Below are positions 5,415-28,923 of a stretch of 35,577 nucleotides of DNA, piece after piece. The position numbers and the translations under genes are program-made. Numbering within the stretch: the first letter of the stretch is position 1; every line of letters begins with the position of its first letter. Below the pieces are notes generated by a model. The model was not told where the DNA came from, ran no database searches, and saw nothing but the letters and a program-made list of their open reading frames with translations. Origin of the DNA: an uncultured Candidatus Saccharibacteria bacterium (GTDB lineage: Bacteria > Patescibacteriota > Minisyncoccia > Phycocordibacterales > PALSA-1337); contig CAZZPF010000009.1 in assembly GCA_964655515.1 (NCBI GenBank), forward strand, positions 1 to 35,577. The letters are read 5' to 3'.

Positions 5415-6612
5415 TATTTATTTTTACTAATAAATCCTCAATTTTAATCCTTTGCTGTTTTCCACTGTCTCTATCCCGAACAGTCACCCCATTCCCCTTT
5501 TCAATAGTTTCAAAATCAACGGTTACGCAAAAAGGTGTACCTATTTCATCTTGTCTGCGATAGCGCTTGCCAATATTTCCATTATCATCAAAGGCAATTG
5601 CAGAAATTTCTTTTTTTAACATTTTATAAATTTCTTGAGCTTTTTCTACGAGTTGAGGTTTATTTTTAAGTAAAGGAAAGACCGCAACTTTTACCGGAGC
5701 AATTCTCGGTAAAAGTTTCAGATAGACTCTTTGCTCACCGTCTATTTCATCTTCGGTGTAAGCATCAGATAAAACTGCCAAAACTATTCTTTCAACACCG
5801 AAAGAGGGTTCAATACAGTGCGGAATAAATTTTTCTTTTGTTTCTTCATCATAATATGAAAGATCAACTTTGCTTGCTTCAGAATGTTGTTTTAGATCAA
5901 AATCTGTACGATATGCCAGACCATATAATTCTTTTCTGCCAAAAGGAAAATCAAATTCAAAATCAATGGTTCTTTTTGAATAATGCGCTCGTTCATTATC
6001 TAGAACTTCTAGTTGGTGTATATTTTTAAGATGAATTCCAATGTCTATAATGAAAGCTTCAGTTTCCTTTACAAAATGTTTGAAGGTTTTTTCCCAATCC
6101 TTAGGTTTTATGAAATATTCAATTTCCATCTGTTCAAATTCTCTAGTACGAAAAATAAAATCTCTGGGTGCGATTTCATTTCTAAATGCTTTGCCAATTT
6201 GTGCAAGACCAAAGGGAAGTTTTGCACCTGTATTATCTAGAATATTTTTAAAATTAACAAACATTCCCTGGGCTGTTTCTGGACGAAGATATGAAATTGA
6301 GTTTTCATCTTCAATAACACCGACATTGGTCTTAAACATCATGTTAAATTTCTTTCCATCTACAAGCGGATCTGAAAAATCAGAAATGTGTCCACTGGCC
6401 TTCCATACATTCTGATTCATTATAATGGCCGTATCTAGACCATATATATCATCACGATCTGTTACAAAACGCTTCCACCATATTTGCTTTATATTATTTT
6501 TTAAAGTTAATCCATGATGAACAAAGTCCCACGCCCCTGCAAGACCTCCGTAGATTTCGGAGCCTTGGAAAATAAAACTCCGTCTTTTGCAAAGAGAGAT
6601 TATTTTTTCCAT
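5401..6612 (-). CDS. glyQS: glycine--tRNA ligase (dimeric class II type)
   Basis: MEKIISLCKRRSFIFQGSEIYGGLAGAWDF is a typical GlyRS N-terminus. FRNEIAPRDFIFRTREFEQMEIEYF is class II motif 2. I chose the start at the ATG at 6612 (M22 of the track ORF). Confidence 0.85.
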   Translation of the reverse strand: MEKIISLCKRRSFIFQGSEIYGGLAGAWDFVHHGLTLKNNIKQIWWKRFVTDRDDIYGLDTAIIMNQNVWKASGHISDFSDPLVDGKKFNMMFKTNVGVIEDENSISYLRPETAQGMFVNFKNILDNTGAKLPFGLAQIGKAFRNEIAPRDFIFRTREFEQMEIEYFIKPKDWEKTFKHFVKETEAFIIDIGIHLKNIHQLEVLDNERAHYSKRTIDFEFDFPFGRKELYGLAYRTDFDLKQHSEASKVDLSYYDEETKEKFIPHCIEPSFGVERIVLAVLSDAYTEDEIDGEQRVYLKLLPRIAPVKVAVFPLLKNKPQLVEKAQEIYKMLKKEISAIAFDDNGNIGKRYRRQDEIGTPFCVTVDFETIEKGNGVTVRDRDSGKQQRIKIEDLLVKINNEIQ

Positions 6613-6649: not shown

Positions 6650-8584
6650 TTACTGTACCACCTTCTCATCGCCATCTTTGAAGACCTGATCTGTGCTAAA
6701 CCGTGTTGTAAGTTGTCCTAAATTACTGTTCAATGTCTGTCCTGTAAAATCGTCTTGCGCTGTAAGACTTGCTTGATTAACCAAAACTGGAATTTGACCA
6801 ACTTGAGTTATGCTTGGTTTTAGTGAAATCTGAAAAGCTACTTCCTTTCTTCGTGAATTATTGAGTGTATATGTATCCAGATTACCAATTTTCCATGTGA
6901 TAACTCCATCAACATTATTATAAGTAATATCTTCAGTAGTAGGACTTATTTTACCGACCCATTTTACATACGGAGGTAGACTTGCATGAACTAGAGCATT
7001 TGAAACTGTACTGGAAGTATTATTAACTGTCCAAACGACTGTATATGTAGTCTGTTGTTCAGCTTTAGGTGGAATAGGGCCAGTATTTTCAAATGGACCA
7101 GTTCCTCGTAGTACTTGACCGCCAAGAGCAATATCTGAAGCAATTTTTATGTGTCTATTTGCGCTTGAAGTAATATTCTCTGGAACATCAGTTTCTGAAT
7201 TTCTTTTACCTTTAACACCGACAATTAGAGAAACATCTGGGTTCGTAATGGGTTTCAAGGAAGTGCCGAGATCTCTTGGTGTAAAGCTGAAACTTACGCG
7301 TCCATTATCACCCGCAGCAATATTTGCGAGCTCTTTTGTGGTAATTTGATTCCAAACAATTTCATTATTGACAGAATCAAAAACACCCTGGTCAGGAGAT
7401 ACAGAAACTTTATCAAGGGCAGTACCAGAAAGCTTGACATGAATTTCTCCATCAATAACTGATGTTGGTAAATTATTGAAATAAGAGATTTCAACTTTTA
7501 TAGGATGATTAAATGTAGCGATATATTCTTGATTATCAGTATCGCCTTCAAGTGAAACACCAACACTGATAAATGGCTTTTTTATAATGATTTCCTGTGT
7601 GCTTGAAATATATTCGGTACCTATGACTTTTTCATTACGAATACTTTGGGCTCCAGTACTAAAACGAAAAACTCTAGTCTCATCGTCTTGACCTTCTAGT
7701 TTGCCTTTAATTTTAATAATTTTCTTTCCACCGGGGGGTATATCACCTATTTTCCATGTAGCATTGTCTGAAAGTGGCTTTATATCAGAAGATATAAAGG
7801 TAAATCCGAATGGATAAATGGTTTTTAGTAAGAGGTTTTTTATTACTTCTTTTGAATTTGAGGTCATTGTCAATGCCATTTCAAATTCTTGATCAGAATT
7901 AACTTCCTTAAATGAAGATATTGATAGGGTTAGTGGTGATGAACTGATAAGTAAATCAAAAGTTTTTTCTTTCTGAAAAATAGCGTTAGAACCTTTAACT
8001 CTGTATTCAACACTTACTTTTATTAATTTTTTACTATTTTCTTCTCCATAAACCACAACCTTAATTGTTTTCTGACCAATTCCCCCAGGATCAATATCGG
8101 GAATTAATTCTCTAAATGTTTTTAGTTCTTTTGTGGTATCTAAAGAATCAGTAGTACCTGCAGGAAAATCTACTGAAAGATCTACTGTTTCAAGTTTTAT
8201 ATTATTTTTATTTGATACCTGCACATCAAATGATACTGGCTCACCTCCAGCCACTGATACAGGGCCATTGATAGTTATATCAATATTGTTTGCAGAAACT
8301 ATGTTGGATCCATTAAATACAAGAAGAGCACCGAGACCAAGCGCTAGAATAAAAAATATAATAGATCCTATAAGAAGTTTAGTAAAAAATGACATGGAAT
8401 GATCTTCATAACGATTATTCAAATCAACATCCTCAGGTAGTTTTTCATGATGCTCCCAGTCAGTCTTCACTTCTATTTCCTGCGGTTCGAATCTAAGTCT
8501 TCGCTTGGTGCGAATGTCTGGTGCTGTTCGCGAGTAAAGGGACTTCTTAAGTTCTTCAATCCTGCTTTTTTCTTCGGGAGTCAT
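6650..8584 (-). CDS. membrane-anchored surface protein with repeated beta-sandwich-like modules, function unknown
   Basis: It has a charged N-terminal region of about 65 aa, then a single TM helix (FFTKLLIGSIIFFILALGLGALLVF). A long Ser/Thr/Asn/Val-rich region follows, with recurring strand-like patterns such as V..G..V.F.V.V.N. I recognise no catalytic motif. Confidence 0.45.
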   Translation of the reverse strand: MTPEEKSRIEELKKSLYSRTAPDIRTKRRLRFEPQEIEVKTDWEHHEKLPEDVDLNNRYEDHSMSFFTKLLIGSIIFFILALGLGALLVFNGSNIVSANNIDITINGPVSVAGGEPVSFDVQVSNKNNIKLETVDLSVDFPAGTTDSLDTTKELKTFRELIPDIDPGGIGQKTIKVVVYGEENSKKLIKVSVEYRVKGSNAIFQKEKTFDLLISSSPLTLSISSFKEVNSDQEFEMALTMTSNSKEVIKNLLLKTIYPFGFTFISSDIKPLSDNATWKIGDIPPGGKKIIKIKGKLEGQDDETRVFRFSTGAQSIRNEKVIGTEYISSTQEIIIKKPFISVGVSLEGDTDNQEYIATFNHPIKVEISYFNNLPTSVIDGEIHVKLSGTALDKVSVSPDQGVFDSVNNEIVWNQITTKELANIAAGDNGRVSFSFTPRDLGTSLKPITNPDVSLIVGVKGKRNSETDVPENITSSANRHIKIASDIALGGQVLRGTGPFENTGPIPPKAEQQTTYTVVWTVNNTSSTVSNALVHASLPPYVKWVGKISPTTEDITYNNVDGVITWKIGNLDTYTLNNSRRKEVAFQISLKPSITQVGQIPVLVNQASLTAQDDFTGQTLNSNLGQLTTRFSTDQVFKDGDEKVVQ

Positions 8585-26283: not shown

Positions 26284-27261
26284 TTATTTTTCTAATTTTA
26301 AATGTTTTTTGAGTTTGTAAGTATTTCCATGTCCAAGTAATCCACGATAAGAATTTACAGTTTCTTTTTTGGGATAACCTCTTAATTTTCTTATTATTTT
26401 TCTTTTTGTAGTTGTACGAATCTGTCTATGATATGGAAAGTGGACCCAGCCCAGAAAATCTACGCCCGAATCGTAGGTCTTTATGTATACTTTGTGCTCA
26501 TGGAGTGTGAGGTGTAATTTCTCATTCAGAAAAACGTGGAGCTTCGGCAGAATGTCTTCTAGATATTTTCTATCGTCAGACAGGATCGCAAAATCATCCG
26601 CATAGCGAAGATAATATTTTACTCGCAGTTCCTGTTTGAGGTACATGTCAAATTCGTGCATGTACACATTCACGAGAAGCTGAGACGTGAGATTGCCAAG
26701 TGGCAGTCCGACACCAGGAGCAGTTGTGTGAAAGCTCGAGACCACTTGATTAATGAGCCAGCGAATATCTGGATCGGCAATATGACGCTCGAGCACTTTC
26801 ATAAGGACCTCATGATCAACGCTTGCAAAGAATTTCCTGATGTCACACTTAAGCACGAAGCATGTGCGTGTGTAATTCTTGGACATCTTGCGGGCAAAAT
26901 CTCTGAAGCGGTCGAGAGCTCGATGTGTTCCCTTATGCTTTCGGCATGAATACGAATCGTGAATAAAGCGGGTGTGGAAATGCCAGTAAAGCTCTTTATA
27001 AATTAAATGATGCAGCACCCTATCACGCACAGTTGCTTTGTGAATGCTGCGAGGCTTTGGATCGGAAATATTAAACGCTGAGTACAGACCGTGAACATAA
27101 GTCTTATTTTTGAGGTCTGTATATAGGCTAGCGATGTTGATTGTGAGCTCGGCTTGAAATTTTATGACATCCTTTTTGTGCTTTTTGCCGCGTAGAAATC
27201 TCTCCCACGTCAGGAGTAAATTTTCGATTGTGATGATAGAATTGTAGGTATGAGTAAACAT
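26284..27261 (-). CDS. DGR-type reverse transcriptase
   Basis: RT motifs 1-7 are present: PRSIHKATVRDRVLHH, SYSCRKHKGTHRAL, VLKCDIRKFFASVDH, GLPLGNLTSQLLVNVYM (the DGR-diagnostic GxxxSQ), YLRYADDFAIL, LHLTLHEHKV and GVDFLGW. I chose the start at the ATG at 27261 (MFTHTYNSI...). The upstream part of the track ORF is antisense to avd. Confidence 0.88.
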   Translation of the reverse strand: MFTHTYNSIITIENLLLTWERFLRGKKHKKDVIKFQAELTINIASLYTDLKNKTYVHGLYSAFNISDPKPRSIHKATVRDRVLHHLIYKELYWHFHTRFIHDSYSCRKHKGTHRALDRFRDFARKMSKNYTRTCFVLKCDIRKFFASVDHEVLMKVLERHIADPDIRWLINQVVSSFHTTAPGVGLPLGNLTSQLLVNVYMHEFDMYLKQELRVKYYLRYADDFAILSDDRKYLEDILPKLHVFLNEKLHLTLHEHKVYIKTYDSGVDFLGWVHFPYHRQIRTTTKRKIIRKLRGYPKKETVNSYRGLLGHGNTYKLKKHLKLEK

Positions 27262-27287
27262 AACGAGCAGAATAAACCAGTAAGTAA

Positions 27288-27296
27288 CCCCCCCCC
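27288..27296. repeat. C9 (G9 on the minus strand) homopolymer tract in the RT/avd divergent intergenic region
   Basis: I read it directly as ...taagtaaCCCCCCCCCacga... It lies 27 nt upstream of the RT ATG and 19 nt upstream of the avd GTG. Confidence 0.9.
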
Positions 27297-27314
27297 ACGA
27301 TTCCACTCGTTCTT

Positions 27315-27656
27315 GTGCGTGCGAAAGAAGCGTACCAATTGTGGCATAGCTCAATCGTAAATTTAAAGCGTGTCGACCGCTACACGATCGGTGCAAAAGT
27401 TGACGATATTTTCCTCTCACTCCTCGAGCTCATATTCAGAGCATGCTTTGCTTATGACAAATTCGAGAAGCTGTCTCTGGTATCTCAGGCTATTGCAAAA
27501 TCCGACCTGCTCAAATTCTTTCTGCAATTGAGCTGGGAACATAAAGTCATTGACCATAAAAGTTACGGTGCACTGATTCTTCTTTTAGATGAAGTCGGTC
27601 GCATGCTTGGAGGTTGGAAGAAAAACCTTGGAGACAAAACTCCCACTAACAAATAG
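27315..27656 (+). CDS. avd: Avd-like four-helix-bundle protein (DGR accessory variability determinant family)
   Basis: The 113-aa protein has a GTG start. RYTIGAKVDDIFLSLLELIFRACFA...LLKFFLQLSWEHKVIDHKSYGALILLLDEVGRMLGGWKK matches the four-helix-bundle (23S rRNA IVS/Avd) family pattern. It lies between the TR and the RT but on the opposite strand. Confidence 0.7.
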   Translation: MRAKEAYQLWHSSIVNLKRVDRYTIGAKVDDIFLSLLELIFRACFAYDKFEKLSLVSQAIAKSDLLKFFLQLSWEHKVIDHKSYGALILLLDEVGRMLGGWKKNLGDKTPTNK

Positions 27657-27673
27657 TGGGAGAAATCATTTGA

Positions 27674-27795
27674 GTTGCAGAAGCAGAGGAAGGCATTGTC
27701 GTCGTTCCAGACATTCTCGAAGTTGCCAAGGTTGAACTTGAAGTGACCGTCCGAGTTGCAGTTCACATTCGGCACCCTGTGGTTGCCGTCGGCAT
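27674..27795 (-). repeat. DGR template repeat (TR)
   Basis: The 122 nt align without gaps to 28142-28263 at an offset of 468. There are 12 mismatches, and every one is a plus-strand T in the TR, which is an A on the sense strand. In the VR frame the TR is rich in AAC (Asn) codons. Confidence 0.9.
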
Positions 27796-28030
27796 ACCTC
27801 ATCAGCAATGTACGACGCGCCGTCTATTTCACCAAGAAGAGCACCGGCTCCCCTTTGAATTTTATTTCGAGTCTTATACTCGCTGGCACATCGCACCGAC
27901 TTATTTGATTTTTTCATGAAAGGCAGCACTCGTCCGCAAGGCTTACCCGACAGACCGCTCGCTGATTCCTTAAACGAGAATTCGATGACATGAAACCGTG
28001 GCCACATGCGCTATCTAGGTTCCGAACAAT

Positions 28031-28038
28031 ATTATACA
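28031..28038 (-). promoter_or_regulatory. candidate -10 element (TG-TATAAT) for a separate TR-containing transcript
   Basis: The minus strand reads tttTGTATAATatt directly after the target-gene hairpin. The -35 region (tcaatt) is weak. Confidence 0.3.
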
Positions 28039-28049
28039 AAATTTAGATA

Positions 28050-28084
28050 GAAAAATTGAGCCCTCGCAGTGAAGCAAGGGCTCA
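28050..28084 (-). terminator. hairpin downstream of the VR and target stop (terminator and/or DGR-associated stem-loop)
   Basis: tgagccct (28057-28064) pairs with agggctca (28077-28084) around a 12-nt loop. On the minus strand it is followed by atttttc. It lies about 50 nt after the stop codon. Confidence 0.5.
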
Positions 28085-28132
28085 AAGGATCTAAGATCCG
28101 AAGAACTAACTGAGTGTCCAAGTTTCCAAGGA

Positions 28133-28822
28133 CTACTCGACGTCGCAGAAGCAGAGGAAGGCATCGTCGTCGATCCAGACAATCCCGAAGCGGCCAAGGT
28201 TGAACTCGAAGCGACCGTCCGAGTGGCAGTCCACAGTCGGCACCCTGTGGTTGCCGTCGGCATCTGCCCAGAGACGATCCTTTTCATCGAAGGAAGCATA
28301 CCACTTGCCTTTCGGCAGTTGGTCGCGCTTCTGATCGAAGACGAGGGACGCGCCTTGTGCACCGGTGTGAATGGCCTTTTGAGTTGCCAAGAACGCCATA
28401 CGCTCTTCCGAGGTAGTGGTCCCACCGACGACTTGCTTGAACGCGCGAACGCGAAGCTTGTCGCCAGGCTTCAGGACCCGAGTCGGATTCGGGAAGTTCT
28501 TGTCGGTGATCTCGTCGTTGTAGTAATAGAACTTTTTACGGTTCTGCTTACCGAACGTCGTGAACCGCTTGTCGTGCACGTAGTTATCGGGCACCGTGAT
28601 GATGCCGAGGTCCACGAGCAGAGCGAACTTTTCGGTGGGTTCCGCAGGAGCTGTGGACTCCGGCTTCTTCCAATCGCCGAAACGTGCTTCCCGATCATCC
28701 GGAGAGAGGTTGTTGAACCGCTCCAACTGGCCGAGGGTGATCTGACCGCTTCGCACCTTTTGAAGGGTGTCGATTTGCAAACCAGCTAATTTGGCCGCAT
28801 CTGCGTCGATGATAGTGTTCAT
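28133..28822 (-). CDS. DGR target (variable) protein, 229 aa, no recognisable signal peptide
   Basis: A good RBS (AAGGAAAGGA) lies 6 nt upstream of the ATG. The gene is high in GC. The C-terminal 41 codons are the VR, and the protein ends ...AFLCFCDVE. Confidence 0.85.
   Translation of the reverse strand: MNTIIDADAAKLAGLQIDTLQKVRSGQITLGQLERFNNLSPDDREARFGDWKKPESTAPAEPTEKFALLVDLGIITVPDNYVHDKRFTTFGKQNRKKFYYYNDEITDKNFPNPTRVLKPGDKLRVRAFKQVVGGTTTSEERMAFLATQKAIHTGAQGASLVFDQKRDQLPKGKWYASFDEKDRLWADADGNHRVPTVDCHSDGRFEFNLGRFGIVWIDDDAFLCFCDVE
28142..28263 (-). repeat. DGR variable repeat (VR)
   Basis: This is the counterpart of the TR. It ends 2 codons before the stop codon. Eleven amino-acid positions differ from the TR-encoded sequence. 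Confidence 0.9.
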
Positions 28823-28894
28823 CGTTTGTCCTTTCCTTACAATGTGCTTTCGGAAATCTGCCGAATCAGTCGCAAGGGCATCTTGCTACTGTAA

Positions 28895-28923
28895 ATTATA
28901 CACCCTACATCATATTTTGTCAA
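28895..28923 (-). promoter_or_regulatory. consensus sigma70-type promoter of the DGR target gene
   Basis: The minus strand reads TTGACA (28923-28918), a 17-nt spacer, then TATAAT (28900-28895). It lies about 70 nt upstream of the target ATG. Confidence 0.6.

Follow-up and report, generated by a model that had tools for sequence, protein, structure and literature searches.

The 35,577-nucleotide stretch of DNA analyzed here, referred to below as the window, comes from contig CAZZPF010000009.1 of an uncultured Candidatus Saccharibacteria bacterium. It carries the components of a diversity-generating retroelement (DGR): a reverse transcriptase (RT), the accessory protein Avd, the template repeat (TR), plus a target gene ending in a variable repeat (VR). 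An initial annotation made from the sequence alone had described a complete DGR cassette, and all four components are found where it placed them. The coding regions, the two repeats and a promoter-like site are as follows, each with the evidence for it.

26284-27261, minus strand: DGR reverse transcriptase, 325 aa, with LGNLTSQ and YADD motifs (open reading frame (ORF), RVT_1, structure-sequence match)
27315-27656, plus strand: avd (accessory variability determinant), 113 aa (Pfam bAvd, NCBIfam DivGenRetAVD)
27674-27795, minus strand: TR (repeat comparison with the VR)
28142-28263, minus strand: VR (3' end of the 229-aa target ORF)
28133-28822, minus strand: target gene, 229 aa, of which the last part is the VR (ORF)
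28895-28923, minus strand: promoter-like TTGACA-17-TATAAT, with 12/12 matches, upstream of the target gene (promoter scan)

We consider it highly probable that this element is a complete and apparently intact chromosomal DGR of a Patescibacteria/candidate phyla radiation (CPR) lineage, laid out as target-VR, TR, reversed avd and RT.

TR and VR differ only at template adenines

Positions 27674-27795 and 28142-28263 form a direct repeat of 122 nt with 90% identity. All 12 mismatches between the two copies fall at TR adenines (hypergeometric P = 1.1e-8, given 31 A in 122 nt), and no non-adenine mismatch occurs over the 122 nt. The earlier claim that the 3' end of the target copies the template and departs from it at adenines only is therefore borne out. 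The VR, the only one in the window, corresponds to codons 187-227 of the target ORF. TR adenines occupy the first (12) and second (19) codon positions and never the third (n = 31), ten of the TR codons are AAY, and each of the 12 mismatches changes an amino acid. With up to 18 codons recodable, the theoretical repertoire is approximately 2.5e16 proteins. Both repeats end in the same adenine-free 18-nt stretch, GCCTTCCTCTGCTTCTGC. Inspected for IMH/IMH* boundary elements and for an inverted repeat downstream of the VR, the locus shows this stretch, the codon-227 difference and the post-VR repeat and hairpins described below.

The final mismatch, at TR position 120, lies in codon 227, which is AAC in the TR and GAC in the VR. 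In the family, nearly all members keep D227, whereas hypervariability marks the remaining codons that contain A, so this mismatch is probably a fixed difference between the repeats, rather than a product of mutagenesis, and would mark the end of the exchanged segment. Among 106 family members, codons with a TR adenine at position 1 or 2 have a column entropy of 2.47 bits, compared to 0.67 bits at the remaining VR codons (P = 1.6e-6). At about 28 related loci, VR and TR show 9-23 mismatches each, nearly all at TR adenines. One TR codon, 206 (AAG, 27738-27740), is mutable to a stop (TAG), and some homing events would therefore truncate the target 24 residues early.

The reverse transcriptase and Avd

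The RT ORF starts at ATG, encodes 325 aa and matches Pfam RVT_1 at 8e-25. Its LGNLTSQ and YADD motifs lie at 26680-26700 and 26593-26604. An alternative GTG-initiated ORF of 378 aa is unsupported and unneeded, since the alignment with relatives already begins at the first residue of the 325-aa form. The best match among solved structures is the 328-aa RT of PDB entries 8ub7-8ube (E = 1.3e-38, 136 bits, residues 7-300). We take this protein, which has YMDD and IGSLTSQ motifs, to be the Bordetella phage bRT; the aligned sequence agrees with the active-site numbering given in the cryo-EM preprint on bRT. Against the window RT, group II intron RTs, retron RTs and Drt3a reach at most 58 bits, with E values of 1e-14 or weaker for the group II and retron enzymes. 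In this comparison of scores, the RT does not group with group II intron or retron RTs. The DGR-type RT proposed in the initial annotation thus has both of its motifs in place and is nearest, among solved structures, to a Bordetella phage DGR RT.

The avd gene sits between TR and the gene encoding the RT, on the strand opposite to RT, TR and VR, and it is transcribed divergently from the RT gene. Its product matches Pfam bAvd at 1.4e-12 (48.5 bits, above the curated 40-bit cut-off), in agreement with the Avd-like protein of 113 aa predicted earlier. The match to PDB 4dwl (Bbp7), the free-Avd model in Handa et al. (PMC6182149), is weak (E = 0.65).

A standard CPR layout with many relatives

A genome scan gave 79 loci; related loci carry L numbers below. 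Among them, approximately 30 Patescibacteria loci repeat the arrangement of the window by tblastn: target (+), TR (+), avd (-) and RT (+). The core order of the window (TR, reversed avd, RT) is that of Architecture B3, 'TR-(avd)-RT', which makes up 90% of the CPR set of Wu et al. 2018 (PMC5758913). Because the layout is both B3 and that of the related loci, the reversed avd is no oddity, and the window DGR is a standard member of a known CPR DGR lineage. The initial annotation was right that DGRs are known and common in CPR-type lineages, and its mention of atypical properties does not hold for the layout. The cassette is also consistent, through its mostly Patescibacteria relatives and its domain-less target, with the DGR clade 2 that Roux et al. 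2021 (PMC8144416) describe as restricted to Patescibacteria and cellular, with targets without recognizable domains.

Named relatives are nearly all Patescibacteria metagenome-assembled genomes (MAGs). Two records have other labels: the target-bearing contigs L033, with a full cassette, and L062 are labelled Thermodesulfovibrionales and Bdellovibrionales, probably through binning errors.

At about half of the related loci, the target homologue has no avd or RT within 6 kb. One such target is L064. Comparing its VR with the TR of L037, which belongs to the same MAG but lies on a different contig, gives 10 mismatches, all of them at A. The L064 VR also differs from the VR of L037 itself, and L064 is therefore a remote target. 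In three loci (L008, L025 and L031), a single TR serves two VRs. We rejected L030/L070 as an example of a remote target, as the two target copies are 100% identical and hence not independent. Several close orphan targets (L004, L083-L085 and L091-L093) also share a conserved location, with a peptidase M50 gene on one side and rpsL-rpsG-fusA on the other; their sequences do not vary among 3 to 7 contigs obtained from different samples. At L091, a gene of PF05635 (23S_rRNA_IVP, an Avd-like four-helix bundle) lies between rpsG and fusA.

A structured RNA domain precedes the TR

Over the 337 nt from the target stop codon to the TR, conservation equals that of the coding regions in the related loci compared. 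Features in this interval and just after the TR are listed here.

28087-28130, minus strand: post-VR element, made up of the direct repeat CTTGG-AAA-CTTGG (28118-28130) and the hairpin GGATCTTAGATCC (28087-28099) (conservation)
28051-28085, minus strand: intrinsic-terminator-like hairpin and T run at the end of the target transcript (terminator scan, conservation)
28031-28036, minus strand: -10 box, conserved as TATAAT or TATACT in 24 loci and the putative DGR RNA promoter (conservation)
27796-28029, minus strand: structured 5' domain of the DGR RNA, approximately 234 nt (covariation)
27636-27662, minus strand: covarying, terminator-like hairpin and U tract (UUUU), 11 nt after the TR (covariation, terminator scan)

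Behind the stop codon of cassette-linked targets, and of most remote or orphan ones, come the CTTGG-N3-CTTGG repeat and the small hairpin; they never follow a TR. The post-VR element is a candidate for target recognition or homing. A few orphan targets have no such repeat and hairpin; they also match known TRs poorly.

The 5' domain comprises 8 helices with 56 base pairs. Compensatory double changes are seen at 46 of the 56 pairs, and 96.4% of cells are paired. When the partners were slid by 1-3 columns, pairing fell to 36-50%, and none of 500 shuffles reached the observed values. The invariant single-stranded motifs include GAAAAAA, AGTCGGTG, AATAAAAT and GGTG, and hairpin insertions of variable length occur at helix tips. 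The domain is closed by a 12-bp helix (27885-27896 paired with 27810-27821) that ends 14 nt before the TR.

We built a covariance model of the 5' domain from 24 sequences. It matches directly upstream of TRs only, apart from partial matches beside four orphan targets (L012, L060, L022 and L070). These partial matches follow the targets and suggest decayed cassettes. Non-seed matches scored 201 bits at L031, 111 bits at L075 and 106 bits at L072, the last two in cassettes whose targets have a different C-terminal domain. At L012, the orphan target is flanked by 212-nt direct repeats (5682-5893 and 6909-7120, 99.5% identical), and the partial match (110 bits) lies downstream of it at 6784-6929; this locus looks like a cassette truncated by recombination.

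On the other side of the TR, the stop codon of avd sits, on the opposite strand, in the loop of the covarying hairpin. In a survey of DGR RNA elements that covered 40 nt upstream and 100 nt downstream of the TR, the post-TR stem-loop was read as Avd-binding (bioRxiv 10.1101/2023.10.23.563531). The hairpin in the window corresponds to the Avd-binding stem-loop predicted downstream of the TR in many DGRs. Beyond it, we rejected a functional RNA running antisense through avd and comparable to the spacer (Sp) that comes after the TR in BPP-1, the mechanistic prototype of DGRs (Handa et al. 2018, PMC6182149; bioRxiv 10.1101/2023.10.23.563531). At third codon positions, avd has an entropy of 1.19 bits, on a par with the 1.27 bits of RT, except in the last 8 codons, which overlie the terminal hairpin; since the synonymous sites of avd are otherwise as free as those of RT, no long functional RNA passes antisense through the gene.

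Given this arrangement, we read the DGR RNA as a separate unit of approximately 390 nt (~28024 to 27636, minus strand) that has a large structured part before the template. The initial annotation called the TR non-coding, which is correct as far as it goes; the description was incomplete, since the TR forms part of a structured RNA gene that extends beyond it. The closing helix would stand where an RT finishing the TR meets it, in a position resembling that of the 'cPRT stop' duplex in the Bordetella RNA. The RT-1 to RT-19 motifs should be included in Rfam 15. Searches of Rfam 15 at gathering and permissive thresholds (E up to 10) returned nothing but tRNAs, with no group II intron or retron RNA family, and over 27200-28300 they gave only chance-level matches (E >= 0.16). 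The RT-10 motif is the Bordetella spacer RNA (PMC5737381). In the available papers, we found no description of a structured RNA before the TR.

A length-variable repeat lies between avd and RT

The divergent avd and RT genes are separated by 53 bp that contain one further feature.

27288-27296, no strand assigned: G9 tract, with G on the RT-sense strand, in the avd/RT spacer (sequence and comparison of 34 cassettes)

This is the only run of G or C of at least 7 in the window. All 34 cassettes compared have a simple-sequence repeat in this spacer: poly-G of 5-15 in 32, the window included, and (GT)11-13 in 2. The tract ends 12-39 nt upstream of the RT start, and the spacer is otherwise poorly conserved. 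Two independent assemblies, L005 and L103, align over 11,867 nt with 0 mismatches and differ only in this tract, which is G11 in one and G15 in the other; a G7 run elsewhere has the same length in both. Contig L003 stops 31 nt beyond the avd start codon, at approximately the position of the tract in L001.

Simple-sequence-repeat contingency loci in divergent promoters include the (TA)n repeat of Haemophilus influenzae hifA/hifB and poly-G promoter tracts of Neisseria. Judged from sequence comparison, the avd/RT tract looks like a contingency locus able to switch expression of RT, avd or both. The G11/G15 difference is possibly an assembly artefact at a long homopolymer. Our literature search found no link between DGRs and phase variation by homopolymer tracts. 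As a tentative proposal that we hold to be rather less probable than its converse, B3-type DGRs of the CPR would combine two properties: a 'permuted' RNA gene of ~390 nt, non-coding, with its protein-binding, stop and priming scaffold 5' of the template, where the Bordetella paradigm has it 3', and RT/Avd expression gated by a hypermutable G run or (GT)n, hence a phase-variable diversifier.

The target gene and its protein

The 229-aa target gene with a VR at its 3' end is present as the initial annotation had it. In AlphaFold models, an N-terminal three-helix module (approximately residues 1-50) is followed by a low-confidence or disordered linker and a C-terminal domain of 167 aa (residues 63-229). 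This domain is modeled with high confidence (predicted local distance difference test, pLDDT, 95.6; predicted template modeling score, pTM, 0.90), and the VR spans its last three β-strands. Neither the full-length nor the domain model had a significant Foldseek match in the PDB or among viral models. Among the weak top matches, C-type lectin-like domains recur (E 0.15-1, TM 0.3-0.45); those named are NKR-P1, mannose receptor CRD4 (carbohydrate-recognition domain 4), LOX-1 and poxvirus and herpesvirus C-type lectins, none with E <0.15 and all with TM <0.45. The second half of the modeled domain runs beta, alpha, alpha and then four strands, an order compatible with a lectin-like topology.

The target profile matched nothing in Pfam or among PDB sequences, and the target sequence matched nothing in NCBIfam. 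The sequence shows no apparent signal peptide or membrane segment, in line with what is reported for CPR DGR targets (PMC8144416). The family comprises at least 608 relatives or clusters at E <=0.001. The relatives listed measure approximately 230 aa and lack a Pfam domain; the named ones among them belong to Patescibacteria/Paceibacterota MAGs.

The three-helix module (28673-28822, target residues 1-50) recurs before different C-terminal domains at Patescibacteria loci L069-L082. At L075, and apparently also at L072, a gene with this module has its own VR/TR and cassette. The recurrence suggests that the module is a shared adaptor for DGR targets in a Patescibacteria lineage.

The base composition of the target gene is also distinctive. 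In the window its GC content is 56%, compared to 35% for the rest, while RT and avd (40-43%) are near host values. Target GC exceeds that of the flanks in every host checked, usually by approximately 10-25 points and by 1-3 points in one GC-rich host. It is 50-60% in most hosts, whose flanks range from ~32% to 57%, and 43% in the two most AT-rich hosts, where it is still above the flanks. For the high target GC together with the high conservation of the cassette, horizontal exchange and unusual constraint are both possible.

Genomic context

The cassette lies in a housekeeping neighborhood, as previously annotated, flanked by genes for FolD, an S-adenosylmethionine methyltransferase, a DUF3105 protein, an MPG glycosylase, L19 and an RluA-type synthase and by five tRNAs. 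The target gene starts 163 bp downstream of tRNA-His. The order RluA, L19, tRNA-Leu(gag), tRNA-His, DGR is common to the window, L007 and L031. Across these loci, L19 and RluA are 49-70% identical to their counterparts in the window and RT is 75-85% identical; for L007 alone the values are 85% for RT, 90% for Avd, 80% for the target, 70% for L19 and 54-58% for RluA. Other cassettes are in unrelated contexts, and most of them are not beside a tRNA, leaving tRNA-targeted integration unsupported as a general rule. These data are compatible with an element of long residence, either conserved to an unusual degree or exchanged from time to time; a recent insertion is not indicated.

Proposed mechanism and alternative explanations

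In the mechanism that we propose, the DGR RNA would be produced from its own small gene of ~390 nt, consisting of the -10 box, the 234-nt 5' domain, the 122-nt TR and the terminal hairpin with its U tract. An RT-Avd complex would bind this RNA, reverse-transcribe the TR and misincorporate opposite adenines. The resulting cDNA would then replace the VR of the target gene (mutagenic retrohoming), recoding up to 18 codons in the last three β-strands of the 167-aa C-terminal domain. The enzymology and the assembly of the ribonucleoprotein are modeled on the Bordetella paradigm, and by the same analogy the 5' domain may supply the scaffold, stop and priming functions of the BPP-1 downstream spacer.

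Several observations weigh against parts of this account. Avd matches NCBIfam DivGenRetAVD at 4.9e-14 with 52.5 bits, below the curated 80-bit cut-off, and the promoter scan found no promoters for RT and avd. A search for a covariation-supported duplex between the 5' domain and the TR 3' end or flank, of the template:primer or stop type, gave weak, overlapping candidates only. The C-type lectin fold of the modeled target domain is not established because the domain has no significant fold match. Near-identical relatives from different samples (L005, L095 and L103) have identical VRs, and orphan targets P0001, P0013 and P0047 are each identical in 3 to 13 contigs, such that diversification may be rare or switched off.

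The same parts could in principle be explained in other ways. An ordinary partial gene duplication, in which the TR would be a decaying pseudogene fragment beside an unrelated group II intron-like or retron RT, could draw on the NCBIfam results: the best model for the RT is group_II_RT_mat, at 140 bits far under its 300-bit cut-off, and no DGR-specific RT model was returned among the NCBIfam matches. We regard this explanation as effectively refuted by the confinement of all 12 mismatches to adenines and the same bias at ~28 loci, by the lack of TR adenines at third codon positions, by the much higher score of the RT against bRT than against group II RTs, by the presence of Avd and by the lack of a group II intron or retron RNA family in the Rfam results. 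It is also improbable that the conserved 234-nt region stands outside the DGR RNA as a target 3' UTR (untranslated region) or an unrelated small RNA or leader. Consistent with such a separation, the promoter scan called no full -35/-10 promoter there, and the ends of the DGR RNA transcript are predicted ones. However, the terminator-like hairpin with its T run and the conserved -10 box part the region from the target gene, and its closing helix ends just short of the TR. The covariance model recovers it immediately upstream of TRs, including in the L072 and L075 cassettes, and apart from the four partial matches most orphan targets have no such element. Somewhat less improbable, yet still unlikely, is that the cassette is a recently acquired mobile element or prophage at tRNA-His rather than part of the host chromosome proper. 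The proximity of tRNA-His, the high GC of the target, the varied contexts of cassettes in other genomes and the closer similarity of cassette proteins than of flanking housekeeping proteins to those of L007 would all suit recent acquisition. Yet integrase and phage genes are absent over ~4 kb on the RT side and 2.5 kb on the target side, RT and avd have near-host GC, and most cassettes are not next to a tRNA. The synteny shared with the divergent L007 and L031 fits old residence, and the CPR DGR clade is cellular according to its published description (PMC8144416).

The alternative that deserves most weight is an intact but currently silent DGR, in which the VR/TR differences record past events and the system is off in the sampled population, the length state of the G tract being one conceivable cause. 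This is a possibility that we take seriously, though we hold it less probable than not. The same-strain assemblies L005, L095 and L103, with 0 mismatches over 11.9 kb, share their VRs, and the orphan targets are identical across contigs, as a silent system would predict. Because same-strain contigs of these relatives share identical VRs, VR turnover at the consensus level is not fast. On the other hand, assemblies give a consensus that masks minority VR variants, and all ORFs in the window are intact, with the catalytic YADD and the SQ motif in place. The lack of any non-adenine TR/VR difference in 122 nt, even with one of the 12 adenine mismatches probably a fixed difference, together with the intactness of all parts, argues for recent homing; on activity, the 'looks active' of the initial annotation is still an inference. 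As for close relatives, exact-protein look-ups of the window target, RT, Avd and L19 in an assembly index gave no match; a metagenome scan with a 30-nt RNA motif found 10 loci, of which the closest cassette is 91.5% identical to that of the window.

Implications

As a complete DGR, the window cassette is one more example of a class already abundant in the CPR and leaves that picture unchanged. Its main interest lies in two by-products of the comparison, the structured 5' RNA domain and the variable avd/RT repeat, both of which are testable and bear on DGR mechanism. To our knowledge, no CPR DGR has been reconstituted so far. The 234 nt of covariation-supported structure upstream of the TR, with downstream constraint limited to one hairpin, define the RNA to include in a reconstitution, and they suggest that DGRs can differ in how RNA scaffold and template are arranged. 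The conserved, length-variable repeat between avd and RT offers a testable idea for how hypermutation could be switched on and off. Finally, the target family, with at least 608 clusters, no annotated domain and a confident model that lacks any significant fold match, offers structural studies a defined subject.

Comparison with known systems

The cassette resembles the B3 DGRs of the CPR and clade 2 in its order and strands, its Patescibacteria host, its adenine specificity and its small, domain-less target with a C-terminal VR and no transmembrane segment. Its core architecture shows no difference from theirs; the 234-nt domain and the avd/RT repeat are undescribed in the available papers (PMC5758913, PMC8144416). 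The remote and multi-target DGRs of Legionella, Treponema and others (Wu et al. 2018, PMC5758913) have parallels among its relatives (L008, L025, L031 and L064/L037), whereas the window has one VR only.

As in hifA/hifB and the Neisseria tracts, a hypermutable repeat occupies a short divergent spacer, and its length varies between relatives and between two otherwise identical assemblies. Unlike those tracts, the one in the DGR is a putative switch, described here from sequence.

The 5' domain invites comparison with the RT-10 motif, the Sp RNA of BPP-1-type DGRs (PMC5737381). Both are structured RNAs beside a DGR template, presumed to serve reverse transcription, but the RNA in the window is 5' rather than 3' of the TR, is larger and has no Rfam match. 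The same inversion separates the window from BPP-1 itself (mtd-avd-TR-brt), in which the structured RNA lies downstream of the TR as Sp; in the window only the hairpin and U tract follow it. The window also differs from BPP-1 in having avd reversed and placed between TR and RT, in its chromosomal, non-phage context and in a target that is not an Mtd-like tail fiber and whose fold has no significant match. Despite these differences, the two systems share full-length RT homology (E 1e-38), the SQ motif, Avd, a TR of ~120-130 nt that is ~90% identical to a C-terminal VR, AAC-rich codons and a stem-loop just downstream of the TR.

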